Origin: Patescibacteria group bacterium
GTDB lineage: Bacteria > Patescibacteriota > CPR2 > UBA1875 > CAIMLA01
Direction: 5' to 3'
Assembly: GCA_041738615.1 (NCBI GenBank)
Contig: JBGSPL010000003.1
Span: 114,352-178,351 of the forward strand
DNA length: 64,000 bases
Shown: positions 8,688-47,367 of the stretch, in pieces
How positions within the stretch are numbered: position 1 is the stretch's first letter
Layout of the letters: every line of letters begins with the position of its first letter
Translations under genes and position numbers: made by a program
Notes under the pieces: generated by a model
Told to the model about the DNA's origin: nothing
What the model saw: only the letters and a program-made list of their open reading frames with translations
Database searches by the model: none

Positions 8688-8835
8688 TTAGTCGATATCT
8701 CCTTTCAAAAGATTCTCCATCCGGAGTGGGGCTCGACTTAGTGCAGATTGGGACTGGCCTTTTTCTGTTCCTAAATTTCGGACCATCCATACTATACCAT
8801 AAGATGGGGAAAAAAGATACAAGATTATTATTAAT

Positions 8836-9468: not shown

Positions 9469-9506
9469 CAAAAATGAGGCATCCAACAAGTTGGAAACCT
9501 CATTTT
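9469..9506 (-). terminator. Hairpin AAAAATGAGGcatccaacaagttggaaaCCTCATTTTT following tRNA-fMet
   Basis: 10-bp stem flanked by A5/T5; reverse complement copy at 10319-10358. Confidence 0.55.
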
Positions 9507-9581
9507 TGGTAGCGGGGGTAGGATTCGAACCCACGACCTTCGGGTTATGAGCCCGACGAGCTGCCACTGCTCCACCCCGCG
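9507..9581 (-). tRNA. Initiator tRNA-fMet (CAT)
   Basis: CGCGGGGTGGAGCAG...TCGGGCTCATAACCCGA (three G:C pairs in anticodon stem)...GGTTCGAATCC...ACCA; closely resembles canonical bacterial initiator tRNA. Confidence 0.85.
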
Positions 9582-9632: not shown

Positions 9633-10028
9633 CTAGCCCTTAAAGAAGAACTTCAACCATTTCTCGGGACCAGAAAGCTTGTCATAAGGATCTTTTTCAG
9701 CCACTTTCTTGGTATCTTCTGGCAAGATAACTATCACCTTTTCACCTGGTTTCTGCAAACCCAGACGTTCTCTTGCTATCCGTTCCTGATAAGACGAGCT
9801 CTGGTAGTAGATGATCTTCTCAGAGAGGTCCTTATTTGCAAGCCTCATGGTCTCAATTTCGTTTTTGAGGCCATTGATCTCTTGTCTCACCTGATAGCTC
9901 TGGTAAAGGGTCTTCCCGACAACAAACAGTAAGTAAAGAATGGAGACGACTATAACGATGCGAATGAGGAAGTTATCTTTGTTCATATCTACATTATAGC
10001 AAGCAAGTATCTCGTTGACTATAAGCAC
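9633..10028 (-). CDS. FtsB/DivIC-like septum formation initiator (single TM + coiled coil); start uncertain (GTG 10028 or ATG 9986)
   Basis: TM helix then coiled coil QEINGLKNEIETMRLANKDLSEKIIYYQ... Confidence 0.5.
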   Translation of the reverse strand: MLIVNEILACYNVDMNKDNFLIRIVIVVSILYLLFVVGKTLYQSYQVRQEINGLKNEIETMRLANKDLSEKIIYYQSSSYQERIARERLGLQKPGEKVIVILPEDTKKVAEKDPYDKLSGPEKWLKFFFKG

Positions 10029-10139: not shown

Positions 10140-10215
10140 GGGCCTGTAGCTCAGTTGGTAGAGCAATTGCCTTTTAAGCAACTGGTCGCGCGTTCGAGTC
10201 GCGCCGGGCCCACCA
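10140..10215 (+). tRNA. tRNA-Lys (TTT)
   Basis: GGGCCTGTAGCTCAGTTGGTAGAGC...anticodon loop CTTTTAA...GTTCGAGTC...CCA. Confidence 0.85.
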
Positions 10216-10243
10216 GATATTTATTCCGATTCGTTCATGACGT

Positions 10244-10318
10244 GGCTGCGTAGCTCAGGGGTAGAGCAGCAGACTCATAAGCTGTTGGTCGGTGGTTCAA
10301 ATCCACCCGCAGCCACCA
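10244..10318 (+). tRNA. tRNA-Met (CAT), elongator-type
   Basis: GGCTGCGTAGCTCAGGGGTAGAGC...anticodon loop CTCATAA...GGTTCAAATCC...CCA. Confidence 0.85.
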
Positions 10319-10358
10319 AAAATGAGGTTTCCAACTTGTTGGATGCCTCATTTTTGTT
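10319..10358 (+). terminator. Hairpin terminator after tRNA-Met; inverted copy of the 9469-9506 element
   Basis: AAAAATGAGGtttccaacttgttggatgCCTCATTTTT. Confidence 0.55.
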
Positions 10359-12354: not shown

Positions 12355-12627
12355 CTAATTAGATAATTTGAGATCTTCTGGTACTGCTCGCTGCGCAATC
12401 GAAATGGAAAGGAACTCGGAAAGAATTCCACGAAGTCTGTTGGTCTCTTCACTATTCCTCGCTATCTCATCGGTCGATATATTTGCGAATAGTTTATCTA
12501 GTTTCAACATGTCACCCTTAAGCTTTGCTTCTTTGGCCTCTAGGCTCACCTCTGATGATTCTTGTTGTATTGGCAAGGAGCCATCCCAAGATTCTGGGGC
12601 TCTCTCTGTTCTCATACCCTCTGTCAT
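12355..12627 (-). CDS. Hypothetical protein
   Basis: 90 aa acidic coiled-coil-like ORF. Confidence 0.4.
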   Translation of the reverse strand: MTEGMRTERAPESWDGSLPIQQESSEVSLEAKEAKLKGDMLKLDKLFANISTDEIARNSEETNRLRGILSEFLSISIAQRAVPEDLKLSN

Positions 12628-12887
12628 TTCACTTCTCCACTCAGTACGTCATTTACGCTATCTAGGGTCTTTTTATCTAAATACCTAGTAATCTCTACGT
12701 TGCATTCGCTCACTAGCTTCGCCAAGGCATCTATGTCATTACCAACTACCTGCGCAAGCTTCTTGGCATCATTAATGATCTCTTCTGCTACCTCTGGGTA
12801 CTCGTGCTCCAGGGTGCGAATGATTTTGTACAAATTATCGAATGGCATCACGTTCGTATCGGTCATATTTCCTCTTTCTGGGTACAT
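12624..12887 (-). CDS. Hypothetical protein
   Basis: 87 aa; 4-nt overlap with downstream ORF. Confidence 0.45.
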   Translation of the reverse strand: MYPERGNMTDTNVMPFDNLYKIIRTLEHEYPEVAEEIINDAKKLAQVVGNDIDALAKLVSECNVEITRYLDKKTLDSVNDVLSGEVK

Positions 12888-12913
12888 TATATACCAAGCT
12901 ATAAATATCGTAA

Positions 12914-12983
12914 AACGCGAAAGGACCGGAGTCCCAGCTCGCGTTGCACCGAAGTGCTAGCGAACCGGAACCCGGTCCTCGTT
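12914..12983 (-). repeat. 70-nt structured repeat element copy 1 (terminator-like, 3' of island D gene D1); identical to 13754-13823
   Basis: 100% identical 70 nt; on minus strand forms GGACCGG...CCGGTCC outer stem with inner GCAC-UUCG-GUGC hairpin, followed by TTTCGCGTTTTA. Confidence 0.8.
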
Positions 12984-13025
12984 GTGCTTTTACCCTTGCG
13001 GGTCAGGCTGCACGCCTGTGTGGAG

Positions 13026-13568
13026 CTAGAAGCTCTTGAGCTTCTTCTGGAGATCTTTGATTGCGTTGAGGGTCTCCGTGTCCTCGCCCTCGTTGTCGCC
13101 GATGTTCTCGGCGCTGACAACGTACTTGGCCAAACGGTTGATACGTGTCTCGATGGCTTTGCGGGGAAGGTCCCGCCCTTCGACCATGTCGTAGAGCATC
13201 GGGATGACGTTGTCACCGAGATTGCCGTACGCGTAGCCTTGGGCATCCTTGCCCGTGAGACGATCTTCGTAATCCTTCATGGCGTCGTCGAAGTTCACGA
13301 GCAATTGCTTCGGGTTGGCTACCAAGTTCAACTGGTAGAGCTGGTCGTCCTGCTTGACGATCTCCTCCTGGAGAGCGTCGGCGCGCTCGGACTGGGCGTC
13401 GAGTTGCTCCTGAACGGACTTGTACTCGGCCTGGAGCTTCGCGAGTTCCTTACCCTGCTGGATAGCGACCTGGGCCGTCGTCTCGCTCTTGGCCTGCATC
13501 TTGAAAGCAGTGCCGAAGGCGAGTACGAGCAATGCACAGACAACTATCAACGCAAAGATCTTCCTCAT
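13026..13568 (-). CDS. Island D gene D1: secreted coiled-coil hypothetical protein (180 aa from MRKIF)
   Basis: GC-rich; signal peptide MRKIFALIVVCALLVLAFG; RBS GAGAGGGGA 7 nt before ATG. Confidence 0.5.
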   Translation of the reverse strand: MRKIFALIVVCALLVLAFGTAFKMQAKSETTAQVAIQQGKELAKLQAEYKSVQEQLDAQSERADALQEEIVKQDDQLYQLNLVANPKQLLVNFDDAMKDYEDRLTGKDAQGYAYGNLGDNVIPMLYDMVEGRDLPRKAIETRINRLAKYVVSAENIGDNEGEDTETLNAIKDLQKKLKSF

Positions 13569-13709
13569 TTGAGATCCCCTCTCATCGAGCCCCATCGGGG
13601 CCTATTCCACTTGTTTTCGCCGGCGGCGACAGCTGATCACGATGTTCGTGAGCAATTGTCGCCGTGGCGATAGATTCAAGGTGCAATTCTTGATTTCTCA
13701 AGACAGACT

Positions 13710-13737
13710 ATATTAACATACTTGTTTGTTTTGTCAA
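13710..13737 (-). promoter_or_regulatory. sigma70-like promoter TTGACA-N16-TAATAT for D1
   Basis: Perfect -35 hexamer on minus strand in AT-rich linker. Confidence 0.5.
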
Positions 13738-13753
13738 GTGTTTTCTACGCTAT

Positions 13754-13823
13754 AACGCGAAAGGACCGGAGTCCCAGCTCGCGTTGCACCGAAGTGCTAG
13801 CGAACCGGAACCCGGTCCTCGTT
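13754..13823 (-). repeat. 70-nt structured repeat element copy 2 (3' of island D gene D2)
   Basis: Identical to 12914-12983; about 25 nt downstream of D2 stop. Confidence 0.8.
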
Positions 13824-13846
13824 TGTGGTCGCACTCTTGCGACCTG

Positions 13847-14155
13847 CTACCCCCGCTGGAAACCCTGGAAGACGTCCTGAAGCGGACCAGGCACGTTCTG
13901 CAACGAACCGCCTGCGCGGCAGAACTTGGCAGCGTAGTTCGTGACGGTCTCGACGTCGTTGACGTCGCAATCCAGAGGAACACTGCCGATGGTGTCAAGG
14001 TTGCGCTCGAGCTGCTCAAAGGCAACATTCACCGGAATTCCGCCGTGCGGGACGTACTGGAAGCCGTTCTCGGTCATGATCTTGAAGACCGCGCCCATAA
14101 GGGCAAGAACCTTCAACTCATGACGTTCCGTGCCAACCTGCTGATCGCGTGCCAT
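13847..14155 (-). CDS. Island D gene D2 hypothetical protein (102 aa from MARDQQ)
   Basis: GC-rich; AAGGAG RBS 7 nt before ATG 14155. Confidence 0.45.
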   Translation of the reverse strand: MARDQQVGTERHELKVLALMGAVFKIMTENGFQYVPHGGIPVNVAFEQLERNLDTIGSVPLDCDVNDVETVTNYAAKFCRAGGSLQNVPGPLQDVFQGFQRG

Positions 14156-14171
14156 TGTTCGCTCCTTCGTG

Positions 14172-14489
14172 TTAGAGTGTCGCCTCGAGGGCGGCGCGTA
14201 CCTGATAGAGCTTCTTCTGGTTGCGCTGGCCGATCGGGCTGTGCGGGTCGATAACGAAAACCGACTTGACCACCTTGACGATCGGGCTGTCCGCTGAACC
14301 GGCATGGACCTTGGCCGTGAACTTCACGACTTCGGACTTGGCCGGTGCGGCCACGACATCAGGCAACTTCGGGAGATGACCCCGGTTGCTGCCCTTGACG
14401 ATCGGCGCCTTGGTGGCACCTCTGCGAGGCGTGTTGCCACGACGTTCGCGAGCACGCTTGACCTTCTTGGACTCGGTAGGCTTTCCCAC
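14172..14489 (-). CDS. Island D gene D3: small basic hypothetical protein (105 aa, GTG start)
   Basis: Lys/Arg-rich N-terminus; RBS GAGGGGAG 6 nt before GTG. Confidence 0.45.
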   Translation of the reverse strand: MGKPTESKKVKRARERRGNTPRRGATKAPIVKGSNRGHLPKLPDVVAAPAKSEVVKFTAKVHAGSADSPIVKVVKSVFVIDPHSPIGQRNQKKLYQVRAALEATL

Positions 14490-14530
14490 GGTAGCTCCCC
14501 TCGTCTTGTCCCTCAGGGACAGCTGACGTA

Positions 14531-14908
14531 CTAGGACGTCTCGTCGATATAGCGAGCGAGCGTCCAGGTGATGGACAGCTCATCGTGCGCCCCATTGTTC
14601 GTGACCTGCTCAACCTTACCGATCTTCCAACCGGCGTTGAGTGAGAACAGGACCGCGAGCTCCTCGTCAGCACGAAGCAAACGACGAACCTCCTGGACGG
14701 TCTTTCCCGAGAGACCCTCACCGGTATTGATCGTAATCGACCGGTAGTAGGGATCTATAATGCTGGTTGCCTGATAGGGGCGCTGATAGCACTCCTTCAT
14801 CCCACAACCAACAGCGACCGCCAGCGCGACGGCTACCCGATCTTTAACGCCGATGTAAATTTCGTCGACGTCACTAACCACGCTTGCAAGCTCGTCCTTA
14901 TCCAACAT
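14531..14908 (-). CDS. Island D gene D4 hypothetical protein (125 aa from MLDKDEL)
   Basis: RBS GAAAGGAAAC; start placed downstream of leader palindrome; ORF track start (14971) lies inside the palindrome. Confidence 0.45.
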   Translation of the reverse strand: MLDKDELASVVSDVDEIYIGVKDRVAVALAVAVGCGMKECYQRPYQATSIIDPYYRSITINTGEGLSGKTVQEVRRLLRADEELAVLFSLNAGWKIGKVEQVTNNGAHDELSITWTLARYIDETS

Positions 14909-14937
14909 GTCTTGTTTCCTTTCGGAATAGTATGGGC

Positions 14938-14989
14938 ATTGTTTACTGCAAACTATAGACACTATGGTCAACAGTTTGCAGTAAACAAT
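14938..14989. promoter_or_regulatory. Perfect 17-bp inverted repeat ATTGTTTACTGCAAACT-N18-AGTTTGCAGTAAACAAT in D4 leader (operator or RNA hairpin)
   Basis: Each arm is itself a near-palindrome (GTTTAC-T-GCAAAC); lies between promoter at 15025-15053 and the RBS. Confidence 0.6.
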
Positions 14990-15024
14990 AAGTAAAGTTA
15001 CATTTCGCTCTCACGAAACGTTAT

Positions 15025-15053
15025 ATTCTAGCATTTATATCATGTTTTGTCAA
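15025..15053 (-). promoter_or_regulatory. sigma70-like promoter TTGACA-N17-TAGAAT for D4-D3-D2 operon
   Basis: Consensus -35, 17-nt spacer, 5/6 -10, AT-rich linker inside GC-rich island. Confidence 0.55.
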
Positions 15054-15132
15054 TACTACATATGCATAGCGGGCAAGCCCGAATGCATGTGGTATGCAAA
15101 CGGACTCGCCCGCGCGGCTAGTAGCTGGACTG

Positions 15133-15702
15133 CTAGTAGTATTCCTTGGCGGCGTCGTTGAAGCCATCCGCCTCGAGACTGTTGATCATCTGATCGTAGT
15201 CCTTGGTGGCGCTGGGCCAGATATCGGACTTCTTGTACCCCGCCTTCTTGAGGACCTTGAGGACCTTGACGAGCTTGTCGTACTTGCGCCACGCCGCTCG
15301 CCCCTCGATGTTTCCAGGGTACCAGTTCATGAAGCGCGCCACGACTGCCCTCCACCGCCACTCGGGGTGCTCCTTGCGTCCCTCGACGATTCGGATGGTC
15401 GCGTCGAGCGCCATCAGGTAGTGCTCGTCCTCGATGGTGACCTCCCCGCCGTTGGCTTCGCTCCACGCCATGTGGTCGAGAAACTGGCTGATCGGCTCCC
15501 CGGGATACCTGCCGTGAGGTTCAGGCATCGGAGGCGGTTCCTCGGAATCTGCTGCTGCCTGAGCGGCATCTACCGCACTCGTTGCTTCAGGCAAGAAACG
15601 TTGAGTGCGATCAATACTCTTGTTGCACGAACGGATGTAGATGGCGACACCCCCAAGCAAAACCAGTACCAAGATGACGACATGAACCGTACGCAACCGC
15701 AT
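15133..15702 (-). CDS. Island D gene D5: membrane-anchored hypothetical protein (189 aa)
   Basis: N-terminal TM; RBS CAGAGGGGTAGG 6 nt before ATG. Confidence 0.5.
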   Translation of the reverse strand: MRLRTVHVVILVLVLLGGVAIYIRSCNKSIDRTQRFLPEATSAVDAAQAAADSEEPPPMPEPHGRYPGEPISQFLDHMAWSEANGGEVTIEDEHYLMALDATIRIVEGRKEHPEWRWRAVVARFMNWYPGNIEGRAAWRKYDKLVKVLKVLKKAGYKKSDIWPSATKDYDQMINSLEADGFNDAAKEYY

Positions 15703-15742
15703 GAGTTACCTACCCCTCTGAGCCGCAGCTCGGTCAAAATTG

Positions 15743-15796
15743 ATTTTCCTCAACACCCAAGGGACGATGAGTCGCCCACTGCGTGCTGAGGAAAAT
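15743..15796 (-). promoter_or_regulatory. Imperfect inverted repeat (TTTTCCTCAAC...GCTGAGGAAAA) in D5 5' leader
   Basis: 11-bp arms with 1 mismatch, 33-nt spacer. Confidence 0.35.
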
Positions 15797-15823
15797 AGGT
15801 ACAAAACATACGTTTAACGTGTG

Positions 15824-15852
15824 ATTATAGGCCTATTTTAGACATTTTTCAA
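15824..15852 (-). promoter_or_regulatory. sigma70-like promoter TTGAAA-N17-TATAAT for D5
   Basis: On minus strand at the island D / dnaJ boundary. Confidence 0.5.
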
Positions 15853-16079
15853 GAGTATTCAATAGAAATACCCTCCCTCCGCGACCTGCAAAATACGACG
15901 CGTAAGGTTCCTCCTTGATTTAGTGATTTCTAGCATTTAACGTTAAGGACTTTAGTAAGCATGACTAGTCGTTGCGAAGGTCCTCAGACCGCCGCATTTA
16001 GAATGTCTTTTTGGATACTTTTGTGACAATGGACAAAAGTATCACGAGCGCCTTACTTTAGTAGGGGCGAAAAAGTATT

Positions 16080-17219
16080 TTAGAACCAGCCTTTTTCGGA
16101 GGCAAACTCCTCGAGAAGTTTCTTTTGCTTGCCCGAAAGCTTCGTCGGAGTTCTCACGATGATAGTAACCAAGTGGTCACCACGCTGCCTACCGTTTATA
16201 TGCGGAACGCCACGCTCTGTAAGCTTAAACACCTTACCGCTCTGCGTCCCTGAAGGAATCTTTAGGGTGACCTTTCCATCGATAGTTTCTACTTCGACAG
16301 TAGTCCCGAGTGCAGCCTCTGGAAATGAAATCTCGGATTCGCTCTCGATGTTATACCCATTACGTTCAAATCGCTTGTCTGCAGCGACCCTCACAATAAG
16401 GTACAGATCCCCTGCAGGAATCCCATACTCTCCCGCTTCTCCCTTGCCTGTGACTCTGATGGTCTGCCCGTTATCTACACCTGCAGGAATTTTCACCTTT
16501 ATCGTTACTTGTTCCTTTAGCCTGCCCTCGCCATGACACTTAGTACACTTTTTCTCTGGAACCTTCCCCTTACCATGGCACTCGGAACAAATAGCGGCCT
16601 GGGCAAAAGTGCCGAATATCGTATGCTGTTCGGTCTGGACCTGACCCTTGCCGTTGCAGGTGGGACAAGTCTTGGTTCCACTACCCGGTTCTGCTCCATC
16701 ACCATGACATCTATCACAACTGTTCATCTTCAGTAAGGTAAAATCCTTCTCGACTCCAAAGACTGCCTCTGTGAAAGAAATTCGCATTTCTGCCTGAATA
16801 TCAGCTCCTTTGCGCGTACGAGAGGAACGTCCACCGCCACCACCGCCAAAGAAGGTCTCGAAGATATCACCAAAACCACTCAGGTCATCCATATTGACGT
16901 TGAATCCGCCTCCGTTAAAACCGCCGCCATACTGCTGATAACCTGCACCAGCACCGGAAGGTCCGTTGCCTGCGCCAAAGGGACCAGAGTGGCCGAATTG
17001 ATCGTACTGCTTACGCTTTTGGGCATCAGAAAGAATCTGGTAGGCTTCGTTCGCCTCCTTGAACTTTTCTTCATCCTCTTTGCTGCCACCCTTGTCCGGA
17101 TGGTACTTCATCGCTGACTTGCGATAAGCCTTTTTGATTTCATCATCGGTCGCTGTTTTGCTGACGCCCAGGATTTCGTAGTAATCACTTTTTCCGGCCA
17201 ATTTATCCTCTTTCGTCAT
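16080..17219 (-). CDS. dnaJ: Molecular chaperone DnaJ
   Basis: J-domain with HPD, Gly/Phe-rich region, four CxxCxGxG zinc motifs. Confidence 0.95.
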
Positions 17220-20555: not shown

Positions 20556-20631
20556 TCATTCTCCCCTTGCAGGTAATCCAGCACGATTCCCCGAAGGGAA
20601 TCTGTGCTGGGCCCACAATACAGTGATTTGT

Positions 20632-20692
20632 CTGGCACTCTTTTATCTCGAGTGCTAAGTAGATATTAGCACTCCTCGTTGCCGAGTGTCAA
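20632..20692 (-). promoter_or_regulatory. Two tandem CIRCE operators (TGGCACTC-N9-GAGTGCTAA and TTAGCACTC-N9-GAGTGTCAA) upstream of hrcA operon
   Basis: Match to CIRCE consensus TTAGCACTC-N9-GAGTGCTAA. Confidence 0.85.
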
Positions 20693-44089: not shown

Positions 44090-44276
44090 AAATACATTTT
44101 ACAATATTTTCTACCACTAGCGCTAGTTAATATGAATAATATTGTTGAACAAATGCCGACCTCAAGCTATAATTACTGCGAAGCTATGTGCTTGGTCCCT
44201 TTACAGATCATTCGCACGGAGGGGCTGAGTACGAAAACCTATACGAATTTTCGAATCCAACTTGTTGGGAATTTTT

Positions 44277-44331
44277 TATATACCCTACCCTGCTTTTTCT
44301 GATATTCATAAAGGGAAGGGTAGGGTATATA
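44277..44331. promoter_or_regulatory. Perfect 15-bp inverted repeat TATATACCCTACCCT-N25-AGGGTAGGGTATATA upstream of island F gene F1
   Basis: Exact reverse complements; AT-rich junction at left edge of GC-rich island. Confidence 0.55.
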
Positions 44332-44437
44332 AGCGACAAGCCGAGGAGGCGAGACGGAGTTGAGAGGTGTACCGTTCTTTTATCAAGACTTGGTTTCGCC
44401 AGCCGGCGAACAGGGTCCCGGAAAGGGGGCGAAAGGT

Positions 44438-46615
44438 ATGTTCTGCGAATCCGCTGACAGTATCACGGTCGGGAAGCGTTCCTTCAGCTTGAGCTACAAG
44501 ACGAACCAAGGGATCATTGCTCTTCTGGAAGGCGCCGAAGGTCCGATGTCTCCGGGAGACAAGAAGAAAGCATACGACTTCATGGATCAGCGGCGCCAGG
44601 AACTCCTTACGCGCCTCGATGACCTCTTCTCAGAAGAGGCTTTCATGAAACTCCAAACGGAGGCTATGAGGCTTCTGCTCACCAATCCCAGCTACAAGGA
44701 GGAAAAGGCAGTAATCTGCCAGATTCTCGGCAACGAGCTCTGGACGATCTACGGCTCATTCGTCAACGGCCGCTACCCAACCCAGATACTCCAAGGACAC
44801 GACGACTCCATCGGCAAACTGGCCAAGGAAACGGAGCATCACAAGCTCGAGATGGTCTACAACCTTCTGGAGCTATGCTACGTGGTGGTCCTGCACATTG
44901 CCGGTATGCACCTGAAGACCGAAGGTGTCATGAGTGAGTGCCACTGTTGGCCTACGCTTCCTCTGAACACCTGGGTTGCAGGGGAGGTCAAAAGCCGTTG
45001 CAATGGTGTGAAGTCACTCCTGGCAAAACGTCGCTATGACCCCAAGGGTTTCCAGTCGGAGCACATTCCTAAGAGCAGCTCCAATGGAACTCGTGGACAC
45101 AAGCGCGCTGCACTTCCGCCTGCAGAGCTCCCCTACGAAGATGGGGATGACGACAGCGATGTTGTCGGCTCGCAAGAAGAAACACTCGACGGCCTCGAAC
45201 TTGAAACCGACTTTGAAGGTCATGACGACGCCGACGATGTATCACCAGCAGAACCCGAGACCGTACACGAACCTGCTGTGGTAGCGAATGTCGAGAAACC
45301 ATATCAGCTAGGTTTCGAGACGGTTCCGCAGGAGTTTCGTGACCACTTTCTGGAAGTACTGAAGTGCACCGATGGTGTCGATGGAGAGCATCCGCTCTCT
45401 ATACACCGCAAGCAGCTGAGCGAGGCGGCGCGGTCTCACCTCCCCGAAATGGGAGTAGCAGGGCTCGTGGTGCCAAACCGCACTGCTGCGCCTGAACCGT
45501 TCCGCCTGTGGTTCACTCTTGCTCCGGAGTACGAAGATCTCATTACAGAGGCTCAATCTGGATCTCTAGACCCATCCATCGAAGCCAAGGAGGCACCGAC
45601 CATGGGTAAGCGGCAACGTCCAGTGCTAGAAGTACTGGCACTGATTCCCGACGACCTGAAGACGTCCGTCGAGGACTGCCTTCGTTGCATCAAGCGACAC
45701 GAGGCTCCCTACAACATCGTGAAGGGGGACCTTGCGGAGAAGACGTTCGGAGACATTCCCAAGCTCCTTGAGCTGGGAATTCTCCGCGGGGCGGGGCAGC
45801 ACAGCCTCTCTTCCCCCTTCACCGCGCTCGTGAAGCCGTACCAAGGAGGACACCTCAAGGGCATGGTCTATACCGGGCCTGCGCAGGAGTCGTCCCCGGC
45901 ACCTGAACCGCCCAGTGTTCCCTCTGCAACGAGCGGCCCCGACGCGAAGTTCCGTCCCGGTGGCAGACGGCCACCGCAGCTGGGCATCGATTCCGTTCCC
46001 GAAACAGCTCGCGAGCTGTTTGTACGGATCATAAAGGTCGCAGAATCTCCGGACGCTATCGTCACCGGACAGCGGCGAACAGGCCTCTTCCACAAGACCG
46101 ATCTTCGGAACGCCGACGCAGCAAGGCTTGTCGAGCTTCTCGACCTAGGACTGCTGCGCTACACCCAGTCCAGCTACCAGTGGCACGTCAAGTCCGAGTA
46201 CTTCGACTTGATCCGCGAAGCCCAGCAGGGCAAGCTGGACTACATCCTCGAGGGCTCTCCGGCAGAACCGACTGGCGCACCCTCGCCCCCGAATCAGGGG
46301 TCCGAGCCCACACCGCCGGTCCCGACACCACCGGCAGGAGCGGGGATCGGGGGCAACCTGGTTCCCTGCACATCTCTTCCTGAATTCGGAGGACTCCAGT
46401 TCGGACTCACACCTGAACTGGTGCTGGTTCTCATAGGACTCAGTGACGTCCAGTTCAATGAGGAGGGCCAGCTCGTGGTCATCTCCAACAACGTCACGGA
46501 CGAGGTTGGCTGGAACGACGAGCTCGTGAGTGAGCTTCTCGCCACCGGTGCGCTACGCTGCACTGATGCGGCTCTTTGCTTCGGGCTCGTCATCGACGCC
46601 AAACTCACCCTCTAG
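44438..46615 (+). CDS. Island F gene F1: large acidic hypothetical protein with three ~85-aa internal repeats (start uncertain: TTG 44360 or ATG 44438)
   Basis: GC-rich; RBS AAAGGGGGCGAAAGGT-ATG; repeats (T/S)VP(Q/E)xxR(D/E)xF...EY(E/F)DLI(T/R)EAQ(S/Q)G(S/K)LD. Confidence 0.5.
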   Translation: MFCESADSITVGKRSFSLSYKTNQGIIALLEGAEGPMSPGDKKKAYDFMDQRRQELLTRLDDLFSEEAFMKLQTEAMRLLLTNPSYKEEKAVICQILGNELWTIYGSFVNGRYPTQILQGHDDSIGKLAKETEHHKLEMVYNLLELCYVVVLHIAGMHLKTEGVMSECHCWPTLPLNTWVAGEVKSRCNGVKSLLAKRRYDPKGFQSEHIPKSSSNGTRGHKRAALPPAELPYEDGDDDSDVVGSQEETLDGLELETDFEGHDDADDVSPAEPETVHEPAVVANVEKPYQLGFETVPQEFRDHFLEVLKCTDGVDGEHPLSIHRKQLSEAARSHLPEMGVAGLVVPNRTAAPEPFRLWFTLAPEYEDLITEAQSGSLDPSIEAKEAPTMGKRQRPVLEVLALIPDDLKTSVEDCLRCIKRHEAPYNIVKGDLAEKTFGDIPKLLELGILRGAGQHSLSSPFTALVKPYQGGHLKGMVYTGPAQESSPAPEPPSVPSATSGPDAKFRPGGRRPPQLGIDSVPETARELFVRIIKVAESPDAIVTGQRRTGLFHKTDLRNADAARLVELLDLGLLRYTQSSYQWHVKSEYFDLIREAQQGKLDYILEGSPAEPTGAPSPPNQGSEPTPPVPTPPAGAGIGGNLVPCTSLPEFGGLQFGLTPELVLVLIGLSDVQFNEEGQLVVISNNVTDEVGWNDELVSELLATGALRCTDAALCFGLVIDAKLTL

Positions 46616-46633
46616 CGCCACAGGCGCTAGAAC

Positions 46634-46690
46634 CAAGGGGCTACCTGCACAGCACTCGAGAGAGTGGCTGCCTGCTGGTAGCCCTCTTTC
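46634..46690 (+). terminator. Long-hairpin terminator copy 1 (GGGGCTACC...GGTAGCCC CTCTTTC) after F1
   Basis: ~85% identical to 47312-47367. Confidence 0.6.
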
Positions 46691-46700
46691 TTTACCTATA

Positions 46701-46736
46701 TATAGCCTTTACACGAAGGCTATATTGTGGTACAAT
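46701..46736 (+). promoter_or_regulatory. Promoter TTTACA-N17-TACAAT for F2 with overlapping 9-bp inverted repeat TATAGCCTT-N6-AAGGCTATA
   Basis: IR 46701-46724 overlaps -35 (46708-46713); -10 at 46731-46736. Confidence 0.5.
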
Positions 46737-46782
46737 ACTGCACGAAACTATGTACCTGTCAGCAACCGACCAAGGGGGATCC

Positions 46783-47304
46783 GTGAATTGCACGTTGCAA
46801 GTCGCCACCATCGTACTTCTTGCGATGCTCGAGGCAGACAAGCTGCCTATCGAGATGATTCCTGACGAGTTTGAGTACGAGATTTACCTGATTGCGCGTG
46901 AGCACGCTCTTACAACCCAGAACTACGAGTTCGCTCTCCATCTCTCCGAGAGTAGAGAGCGTTCACGCTGGATCAAGGAAACCAACGGAGACCGACTGAT
47001 AGTGATATGGGAAGCTCTCGGTTGGGTCGAGGTCGGATTCCATAGTCCGTTCTGGTCCGGCAAGAAGCGCTATGTCCTCCCGCGCCAATACCGCTCCTAC
47101 CCACCATGCGAAAAGCGTGAAATGGACGAAGCGGAGTTGGATCAAGCGCTAGAACAGGCCCGTGAGAGCCTGTCCAAGGGCTATCGCATCACGTTCTCGA
47201 GAGGCTGCTCGCGCGAAACAGCCTGGCGTTTGTTCGAAGCCGGGTTGGTATCCTGCAACCCGCCGAGACAGCCCAACATGGTTCTCGCACCTGAATGCCG
47301 CTAG
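46783..47304 (+). CDS. Island F gene F2 hypothetical protein (~173 aa from GTG 46783; alternative ATG 46753)
   Basis: RBS CAAGGGGGATCC-GTG; upstream promoter; ORF open from 46576 but that region holds F1's terminator. Confidence 0.4.
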   Translation: MNCTLQVATIVLLAMLEADKLPIEMIPDEFEYEIYLIAREHALTTQNYEFALHLSESRERSRWIKETNGDRLIVIWEALGWVEVGFHSPFWSGKKRYVLPRQYRSYPPCEKREMDEAELDQALEQARESLSKGYRITFSRGCSRETAWRLFEAGLVSCNPPRQPNMVLAPECR

Positions 47305-47311
47305 GCGGCAA

Positions 47312-47367
47312 CAAGGGGCTACCCGCACAGACTCGAAGAGAGGCTGCCTGCTGGTAGCCCCTCTTTC
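47312..47367. terminator. Long-hairpin terminator copy 2 after F2 (shared with convergent VanW gene)
   Basis: Divergent copy of 46634-46690. Confidence 0.6.

Follow-up and report, generated by a model that had tools for sequence, protein, structure and literature searches.

Stem-loops in the 5′ untranslated region (UTR) that protect a messenger RNA (mRNA) form an established class, which, according to references listed in PMC3997798, includes those of ompA, papA and aprE. A candidate of this kind is described here from a 64,000-nucleotide (nt) stretch of DNA from a Patescibacteria group bacterium (GenBank assembly GCA_041738615.1, contig JBGSPL010000003.1, positions 114,352 to 178,351 of the forward strand; hereafter “the window”, with positions counted from its first letter). 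The element is a long inverted repeat in the leader of D4, a 125-amino acid (aa) orphan gene on the minus strand (14531–14908) that is the first gene of a predicted operon. The operon is one of several cassettes in a variable island, each laid out with its own near-consensus promoter, a leader, one to three small open reading frames (ORFs) and a long terminal hairpin. The D4 repeat is real and far beyond what chance would produce, and it probably, though by no means certainly, acts in cis as a 5′-UTR RNA hairpin that governs processing or stability of the mRNA. The hairpin is a leader stem-loop of a known kind and a member of no named family.

The leader of ompA consists of a 5′-terminal hairpin, a single-stranded spacer, a second hairpin and a single-stranded segment with the Shine-Dalgarno (SD) sequence. 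Another group of described elements comprises leader or intercistronic hairpins cut by RNase III, such as the R-sites of phage T7, the lambda N leader, the rnc and pnp leaders, and the early RNA of the B. subtilis phage SP82; the canonical substrate of this enzyme is a helix of two turns or more. The D4 leader resembles those of ompA and papA from E. coli and aprE from B. subtilis in having stem-loops between the predicted transcription start and a free SD, and it matches ompA in the order of 5′ hairpin, spacer, second hairpin and single-stranded SD segment. It differs from all three in the D4 helix, which with 23 almost unbroken pairs far exceeds theirs in length, is internal (at about +28) and has no sequence similarity to them. 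The likeness to RNase III sites lies in a small-looped helix that makes about two turns, in a strong predicted promoter leading to a short gene, and in cassette mRNAs that are flanked at both ends, by the leader hairpin on the 5′ side and by a 73-nt hairpin on the 3′ side. Unlike T7-type sites, which usually contain an internal loop, the D4 helix has a single U.U mismatch.

The arms of the repeat, ATTGTTTACTGCAAACT at 14938–14954 and AGTTTGCAGTAAACAAT at 14973–14989, are separated by 18 nt, and they form exactly the perfect 17-bp inverted repeat with an N18 spacer that had been claimed in an earlier, sequence-only reading of the window. The spacer is itself largely self-complementary, and a repeat finder extended the arms to 23 nt (14938–14960 and 14967–14989, at 91%, with a 6-nt loop). 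Among inverted repeats with a spacer of at most 40 nt, 17 bp is the longest perfect match in the window, and the longest perfect inverted repeats in 40 dinucleotide-preserving shuffles measured only 9–14 bp. As RNA, the element gains an extra closing U.G pair (14937–14990), resulting in a minus-strand hairpin at 14937–14990 with 23 pairs (21 Watson-Crick and 2 G.U), one U.U mismatch and a 6-nt loop. This is the longest hairpin on either strand in a survey of the window in which stems were counted explicitly, with G.U pairs and at most one mismatch tolerated. Folding of the leader in silico, proposed as a check in the earlier reading, yielded a stable long hairpin: the sense-strand RNA of the D4 hairpin folds at −29.8 kcal/mol (z = −9.0), and the whole D4 leader at −44 kcal/mol (z = −6.6).

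The D4 gene, its promoter and its leader all lie on the minus strand. The predicted sigma-70-type promoter of the operon (15025–15053) has a −35 hexamer TTGACA (15053–15048), a 17-nt spacer and a −10 hexamer TAGAAT (15030–15025), with an extended −10 TG at 15033–15032. A consensus scan matched 11 of 12 positions in addition to the TG, in agreement with the TTGACA/TAGAAT promoter that had been placed upstream of the repeat. The predicted 5′ untranslated leader is about 110 nt long. It begins, at about +1, with a small 9-bp stem-loop, ACGTTTCGTGAGAGCGAAATGT (15000–15021, minus strand), that was identified both by RNA folding and in a stem-loop scan and that marks the predicted 5′ end of the transcript. 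Nine nt further on, the long hairpin starts, and it is followed by 17 unpaired nt, the SD and the ATG. Counted from the −10 hexamer, the repeat starts 34 nt downstream. The sequence gives the SD as AAGGA, and together with the start codon of D4 it occupies 14906–14921, with the SD core AGGA at 14920–14917 and the ATG at 14908–14906, 8 nt from the core. The repeat ends 17 nt from the SD core and 29 nt from the ATG, a correction of the earlier statement that it lies 30 nt upstream of the ribosome-binding site (RBS). In the RNA fold, the SD does not pair with the long stem. Control of translation had been offered as one option in the earlier reading; a direct effect through occlusion of the RBS is unlikely because the SD lies 17 nt outside the helix.

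Comparative evidence comes from L090 (GCA_964501135.1), the only public genome besides this one in which an orthologous D4 leader was found. Core genes of L090 differ from those of the window by about 18% (about 82% nt identity), and its promoter, leader and terminator modules are 80–100% identical to those of the window. The D4 protein is 46% identical between the two genomes, and the D4 coding DNA is 40–70% identical in 40-nt windows. In L090 the promoter is kept as TTGACA-17-TACAAT, the small stem-loop retains its stem and varies in its loop, and GGAGG-4-ATG occupies the aligned SD position. The inverted repeat is present at L090:9514–9566 as a 21-pair hairpin (−26.2 kcal/mol, z = −8.1). 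Over the inner 25 columns of the alignment the two hairpins differ at 11 positions (56% identity), with pairing kept and one nt more in the loop. Two pairs are compensatory (A-U to U-A and A-U to G-C), one further pair changes from G.U to G-C, and five are unpaired in one or both sequences.

Stronger evidence for an RNA element came from the other cassettes. All cassette leaders of the island, as well as that of a second island in the window (island F), contain a hairpin of 19–28 pairs, and the sequences of these hairpins are unrelated. The three island cassette leaders, in both genomes, and the island F leader carry hairpins with arms of 18–27 nt at the same relative position. In the stem-count survey, hairpins of at least 21 pairs occur in the window only in cassette leaders. 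The neighbouring cassette, which encodes a 189-aa protein (15133–15702), has its leader hairpin at 15743–15796 on the minus strand. This hairpin follows a TTGAAA-17-TATAAT promoter and consists of 23 pairs closed by a loop of 4 nt. The orthologue of this hairpin, L090:8715–8768, sits behind a promoter that is 93% identical; only 24 of the 54 positions are common to the two hairpins, and both are almost fully paired. Compensatory changes account for 11 of the 25 pairs, and G.U is retained at two; paired cells make up 96%, and none of 500 shuffles matches this result. As read from the aligned sequences, this pattern is clear covariation for a predicted, unannotated RNA helix. In the third cassette (gene 13026–13595), the leader hairpin lies at 13625–13663 on the minus strand and has 18-nt arms, and its orthologue, L090:10826–10871, has 23-nt arms and four G.U pairs. 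The island F hairpin is on the plus strand at 44276–44332, 27 nt before a 751-aa orphan gene (44360–46615), and has 27-nt arms matching at 85%. An analogous repeat had already been noted there as a 15-bp perfect match; it exists, with 16 bp perfect.

The deviations from perfect pairing in these hairpins carry information about the strand. In the sense strands of seven hairpins, the positions that are not Watson-Crick pairs comprise 16 G.U, 2 A.C and 8 others. The excess of G.U over A.C has a one-sided binomial probability of about 7e-4 under strand neutrality, with the orthologous pairs not being fully independent of one another. Since a palindrome maintained at the DNA level would decay symmetrically, the asymmetry argues for selection on the sense-strand RNA. 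The sense strand also folds better than the antisense strand in five of the seven hairpins. Together with the predicted position in a 5′ UTR, the retention of the hairpin in the orthologue and the existence of sister hairpins, the G.U bias (16 versus 2) favours the stable RNA stem, one of the alternatives raised in the sequence-only reading.

A mechanism can be proposed for such a stem. Transcription of the minus strand would carry the repeat in the leader of about 110 nt, where it would form the 23-pair hairpin of about −30 kcal/mol. The hairpin would then act on its own mRNA in cis, as a processing or stability module rather than as a site in DNA. RNase III could cut the helix of at least two turns to leave a defined, protected 5′ end; alternatively, the helix could be a barrier to 5′-end-dependent decay. 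Either way, the short mRNA of an orphan gene would be insulated from its upstream context and would be longer-lived. The same grammar of promoter, long leader hairpin, SD-preceded ORF or ORFs and long 3′ hairpin is seen in each cassette of the island and in island F. We infer that the D4 promoter fires, that the hairpin folds in vivo, and that it affects stability or processing. RNase III as the enzyme involved is a tentative suggestion by analogy, and within the processing or stability reading we lean against it. The near-continuous D4 helix has the approximately two turns (at least 20 bp) of an RNase III substrate, and recognition by helix length rather than by sequence would explain why each cassette has a hairpin of unrelated sequence.

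While these data are consistent with a cis-acting processing or stability element, several observations weigh against it. Classical stabilisers are 5′-terminal, whereas the long hairpin is internal to the predicted transcript. The RNase III signature motif was not found in the window or in the related loci L010, L090 and L092. The D4 hairpin matches no Rfam 15 family, with only transfer RNAs (tRNAs) passing threshold in the window; the best sub-threshold match on the hairpin is a plant microRNA precursor (26.7 versus 67 bits, E = 0.16), a generic hairpin. The covariation signal of the D4 hairpin itself is weak: it comes from two sequences in which 17 of 25 pairs are invariant, and 137 of 500 shuffles were equally good. 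The L090 hairpin breaks two former pairs, one of the resulting mismatches being a C.A, equivalent to a G.U in the antisense RNA, and it is more stable as antisense (−31.4 versus −26.2 kcal/mol). Moreover, the outer 13 bp of both arms (TTGTTTACTGCAA is this 13-bp core) are 100% invariant between the window and L090, compared to about 85% identity across the leader. This invariance hints at sequence-specific recognition, for which a purely structural element has no need.

One form of sequence-specific recognition would be binding of the RNA hairpin by a trans-acting factor that turns the operon on or off through autoregulation or antitermination, an arrangement comparable to ribosomal-protein leaders, phage coat-protein operators, or put/boxB-type sites. 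One candidate factor is the very basic 105-aa protein encoded by the second gene of the operon, which has a lysine/arginine-rich N-terminus and, at 84% identity to its L090 counterpart, is better conserved than any other island protein. An invariant helix base with a variable apex suggests recognition at the base of the helix, and the two tandem stem-loops of the leader would also suit such an arrangement. Family scans detected no RNA-binding domain in the island proteins, however, and the leader has neither a mutually exclusive structure nor a terminator after the hairpin. The unrelated hairpin sequences also count against this explanation, because each cassette would need a different factor. 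We regard it as unlikely.

The invariance of the outer 13 bp is also what keeps a DNA-based explanation alive, namely an operator. In this model, a dimeric or tetrameric repressor would occupy both arms and block the elongating RNA polymerase, as in the double-operator roadblock put forward in the sequence-only reading. The symmetry of the repeat is perfect, TTGTTTACTGCAA is conserved without change in both arms of both genomes, and each arm in the window contains an internal palindrome (GTTTAC-T-GCAAAC); the centres of these two palindromes are separated by 33 bp, close to three turns of the DNA helix. The description of the arms as nearly palindromic holds insofar as five of six positions match, but 9–14% of random 17-mers do as well, and in the orthologue the match falls to four of six because the inner half-sites mutate (GCAAAC to GCAACC and GTTTGC to GATTGC). 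The region between the 13-mers stays self-complementary through its substitutions, which a protein-bound spacer would not require, and the start-to-start distance of the conserved 13-mers shifts by 1 bp, from 37 bp in the window to 38 bp in L090. No DNA-binding gene is adjacent to the repeat, and the excess of G.U on the sense strands of these hairpins speaks for RNA.

A genome-wide search for further sites had been suggested in the sequence-only reading; a motif search of the 64-kb window and related loci found none beyond chance. In the window, GTTTACTGCAAAC with up to three mismatches and TTGTTTACTGCAA with up to two retrieved the two arms together with chance-level, mostly intragenic matches. 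Across 94 fetched loci, no further copy of the arm core was found except in the L090 orthologue. The 17-mer arm had eight single matches in viral contigs, and the three that were inspected lacked a partner arm; the two-arm pattern had no matches in JGI metagenome contigs. A contrast is provided by CIRCE, an inverted repeat that acts as a DNA operator and also in mRNA. Two CIRCE sites (20632–20658 and 20666–20692, each with two mismatches) overlap the −35/−10 elements and the start of the hrcA-grpE-dnaK-dnaJ operon, and these are the only sites in the window that match the consensus TTAGCACTC-N9-GAGTGCTAA with up to three mismatches; both are at the hrcA promoter, 5.7 kb away. The D4 repeat is like CIRCE in being an inverted repeat near an operon start in the same region. 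Unlike CIRCE, with its 9-bp arms, 9-nt spacer and promoter-overlapping position, it is twice as long, starts well downstream of the promoter (34 nt past the −10) and has no sequence in common with it. With a chance-level palindrome, no other copies, no adjacent regulator, a shifted spacing and a position unlike that of CIRCE, the roadblock proposal is unsupported, and an operator seems to us about as unlikely as a site for a trans-acting factor.

A different kind of explanation is that the repeat has no function of its own, having arisen as a palindrome by template switching or hairpin-templated repair and having been kept through the close kinship of the genomes. This would fit with its occurrence in only two genomes, between which most of the repeat is identical, and with database searches having found no other relatives. 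However, in the absence of selection long perfect palindromes tend to be unstable. In addition, the apex still pairs at 56% identity, covariation is strong in one sister hairpin, every cassette leader has an equivalent hairpin, and the 17-bp perfect match is the most extreme repeat of the window. These observations make a functionless palindrome very improbable.

The least probable of the explanations considered is a DNA-level element, either a cruciform or single-stranded DNA fold used for cassette exchange in the manner of integron attC sites, or the remains of a small, palindromic mobile element. The D4 hairpin does resemble attC sites, as both are structure-defined, sequence-variable hairpins tied to gene cassettes in a variable array, with a different hairpin sequence in each cassette. 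Further points in its favour are that the content of this cassette-like hot spot differs between relatives and is absent in one of them (L011), that hypervariable ORFs lie between conserved non-coding modules, and that an element of about 90 nt is common to different loci of the two genomes. Unlike attC, the D4 hairpin has no R″/R′ core sites, no associated integrase and no pattern of extrahelical bases, and it is positioned 5′ of an ORF, behind a promoter. Neither an integrase nor a transposase was found among the neighbours, the hairpins precede ORFs rather than marking the 3′ ends of cassettes, the repeat is single-copy without target duplication, and the G.U bias is strand-specific.

Several named elements were tried for the D4 repeat and rejected. 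CIRCE is absent from the site at up to three mismatches, and the parS sequence TGTTNCACGTGAAACA has no match there at the same tolerance. An intrinsic terminator or attenuator was rejected since there is no U-tract (the tail is CCCAUACUAU), no detection in the terminator scan and no competing fold. The repeat ends in GTTTAC and GTAAAC rather than in the RYYYAAC and GTTRRRY of integron attC sites, which were also dismissed on the grounds of the 5′ location and the lack of a neighbouring integrase. Repeats of the repetitive extragenic palindromic (REP) or miniature inverted-repeat transposable element (MITE) type were rejected because the sequence is single-copy in the window and the fetched loci, the orthologue apart.

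The genomic setting of the repeat is a variable hot spot that extends from dnaJ to a gene for a CvpA-like membrane protein. The genome was classed with the Saccharibacteria. The DnaJ encoded here (16080–17219, minus strand) is 82% and 72% identical to proteins of Candidatus Saccharibacteria metagenome-assembled genomes. The D4 repeat lies downstream of hrcA-grpE-dnaK-dnaJ in a GC-enriched stretch (about 0.56, versus 0.45–0.50 around it), and the coding parts of the island are GC-enriched relative to the genome. Relatives were found through a DnaJ scan (L010), through the 189-aa protein (L092–L094), and through D4 and the 105-aa protein (L090). Between the flanking genes, L011 has nothing, L010 and L092–L094 have other cassettes, and L090 has the cassettes of the window; the hot spot in L010 and L092–L094 is the same, without D4 and its repeat. 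Conservation between the window (12600–16080) and L090 (8620–11900) is mosaic. Some of the ORFs share the 80–100% identity of the promoter, leader and terminator modules; nt identity is 30–60% for D4, for the 102-aa gene of its operon and for the N-terminal parts of two 189-aa genes. Searches of phage and plasmid collections with the island DNA gave no match.

In L092, a more distant relative with a Saccharibacteria island at this hot spot, the cassette leaders include two copies of a hammerhead type III-like, self-cleaving type of motif, at L092:8079–8136 and 8701–8761, which are also present in L093 and L094. Their core is CCGAUGAG...CGAAA, with C replacing the usual U and the CGAAA intact. 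The Rfam score of 28.6 bits (E = 7e-4) is below the threshold of 48.5 bits. Aligned with each other, the two copies show, as we read them, compensatory changes at four pairs spread over two stems. The motifs lie about 45–50 nt upstream of the start of a small ORF and would give the mRNA behind them a processed 5′ end. The D4 hairpin is like them in being at the same hot spot and in the same place in the cassette; it differs in being a plain helix without a ribozyme core. The motifs occupy the equivalent position in L092, and leader RNA processing thus seems to be a recurring feature of the hot spot.

A broader and speculative proposal, which is rather unlikely to hold in full, is that the D4 hairpin belongs, as one of its modules, to a hitherto undescribed kind of RNA-insulated cassette array of Saccharibacteria. 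Such an array would occupy the hypervariable hot spot behind dnaJ together with one or more other islands of the genome. It would consist of fast-evolving, GC-rich orphan genes, each with conserved RNA modules around it: its own promoter, a long leader hairpin that RNase III cleaves and a long 3′ hairpin, with hammerhead-type ribozymes substituting for the leader hairpin in sister lineages. The conserved non-coding modules of the array might also be homology anchors for the swapping of ORFs between strains.

How Saccharibacteria and other ultra-small episymbiotic bacteria regulate their genes after transcription is almost entirely unexplored. Unusually long leader hairpins, backed by covariation and placed around the orphan genes of an island that varies between strains, are a testable handle on this control. 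If the hairpins are processing or stability modules, they would explain robust expression of very short orphan mRNAs and could become expression parts for organisms that are hard to engineer. The D4 finding alone is modest: the repeat is real, it is best read as RNA rather than as an operator, and it belongs to a known class.

Homology searches place D4 itself among orphans. In one search of about 5.8 billion proteins D4 retrieved itself only, and an exhaustive HMMER search yielded one orthologue, 49% identical; the searches covered about 5.8 billion and 1.8 billion proteins. D4 has no family match in Pfam, PHROGs, PADLOC or NCBIfam; its structure model is of low confidence, with a predicted local distance difference test (pLDDT) score of 65.5, and Foldseek returned nothing meaningful with it. 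The C-terminal 45 residues (74–118) weakly match units repeated in two giant proteins with Calx-beta domains: there are 25 repeats in a 4510-aa protein (P0005) with Calx-beta, cadherin and RTX domains, and six in a 2270-aa protein (P0006).

Two genes downstream of D4 (13847–14489, minus strand) are assigned to the same predicted operon from their ORFs and spacing; they encode proteins of 105 aa (14172–14489) and 102 aa (13847–14155). The 105-aa protein had no close match besides the L090 copy and no matches in viral contigs; a 105-aa ORF in L010 (13309–13626) resembles its gene in a translated-DNA comparison, with 41% identity over 63 aa. Upstream of the D4 promoter, between it and the preceding cassette, a terminator-like stem-loop of 18 pairs follows the 189-aa gene (15069–15113, minus strand). 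This stem-loop is 92% conserved in L090, and L092 has a structural equivalent with a U-tract.

The D4 operon is closed by a 73-nt repeat (13751–13823, minus strand) that folds into a UUCG-capped stem of about 25 pairs, with UUUCGCGUU behind it. This direct repeat has a second copy at 12911–12983 that is 99% identical in the minus sense, and the two copies close two successive cassettes. The copies in L090 (10671–10742 and 11511–11582) are 96–100% conserved, above any nearby coding sequence. The window copies fold at −48.7 and −49.2 kcal/mol, and the range over both genomes is −44 to −49 kcal/mol. The 73-nt repeat has no Rfam match, and its core had no matches in metagenome and viral contigs. 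It is likely a terminator or a 3′ stabiliser.

Island F (44145–47360) shares the grammar of the cassettes, with a promoter at 44145–44173, the leader hairpin, and the 751-aa ORF, for which there is no family match. A terminator-like stem is repeated at 46666–46683 and 47342–47359. A second promoter at 46708–46736 is overlapped by an inverted repeat (46693–46732).

Other structured elements were observed in the vicinity. The element of about 90 nt common to the two genomes (15959–16044 in the window, L090:503–589) is 79% identical between them and lies at different loci: downstream of dnaJ in the window, and in L090 between genes for hydrogenase subunits, as part of an insertion of 350 nt. The element holds an 11-bp inverted repeat (GATACTTTTGT...ACAAAAGTATC) and could be a small mobile element or a small RNA gene. 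Just upstream of the hrcA SD, a stem of about 14 bp capped by UUCG (20578–20610) can be read from the sequence. Finally, two hairpins with 19-bp arms (9469–9508 and 10317–10356) bracket tRNA genes (10140–10315) and an ORF (9633–10028). They are reverse complements of each other (CAAAAATGAGG...CCTCATTTTTG), are kept in L090 and L011, and look like bidirectional terminators.

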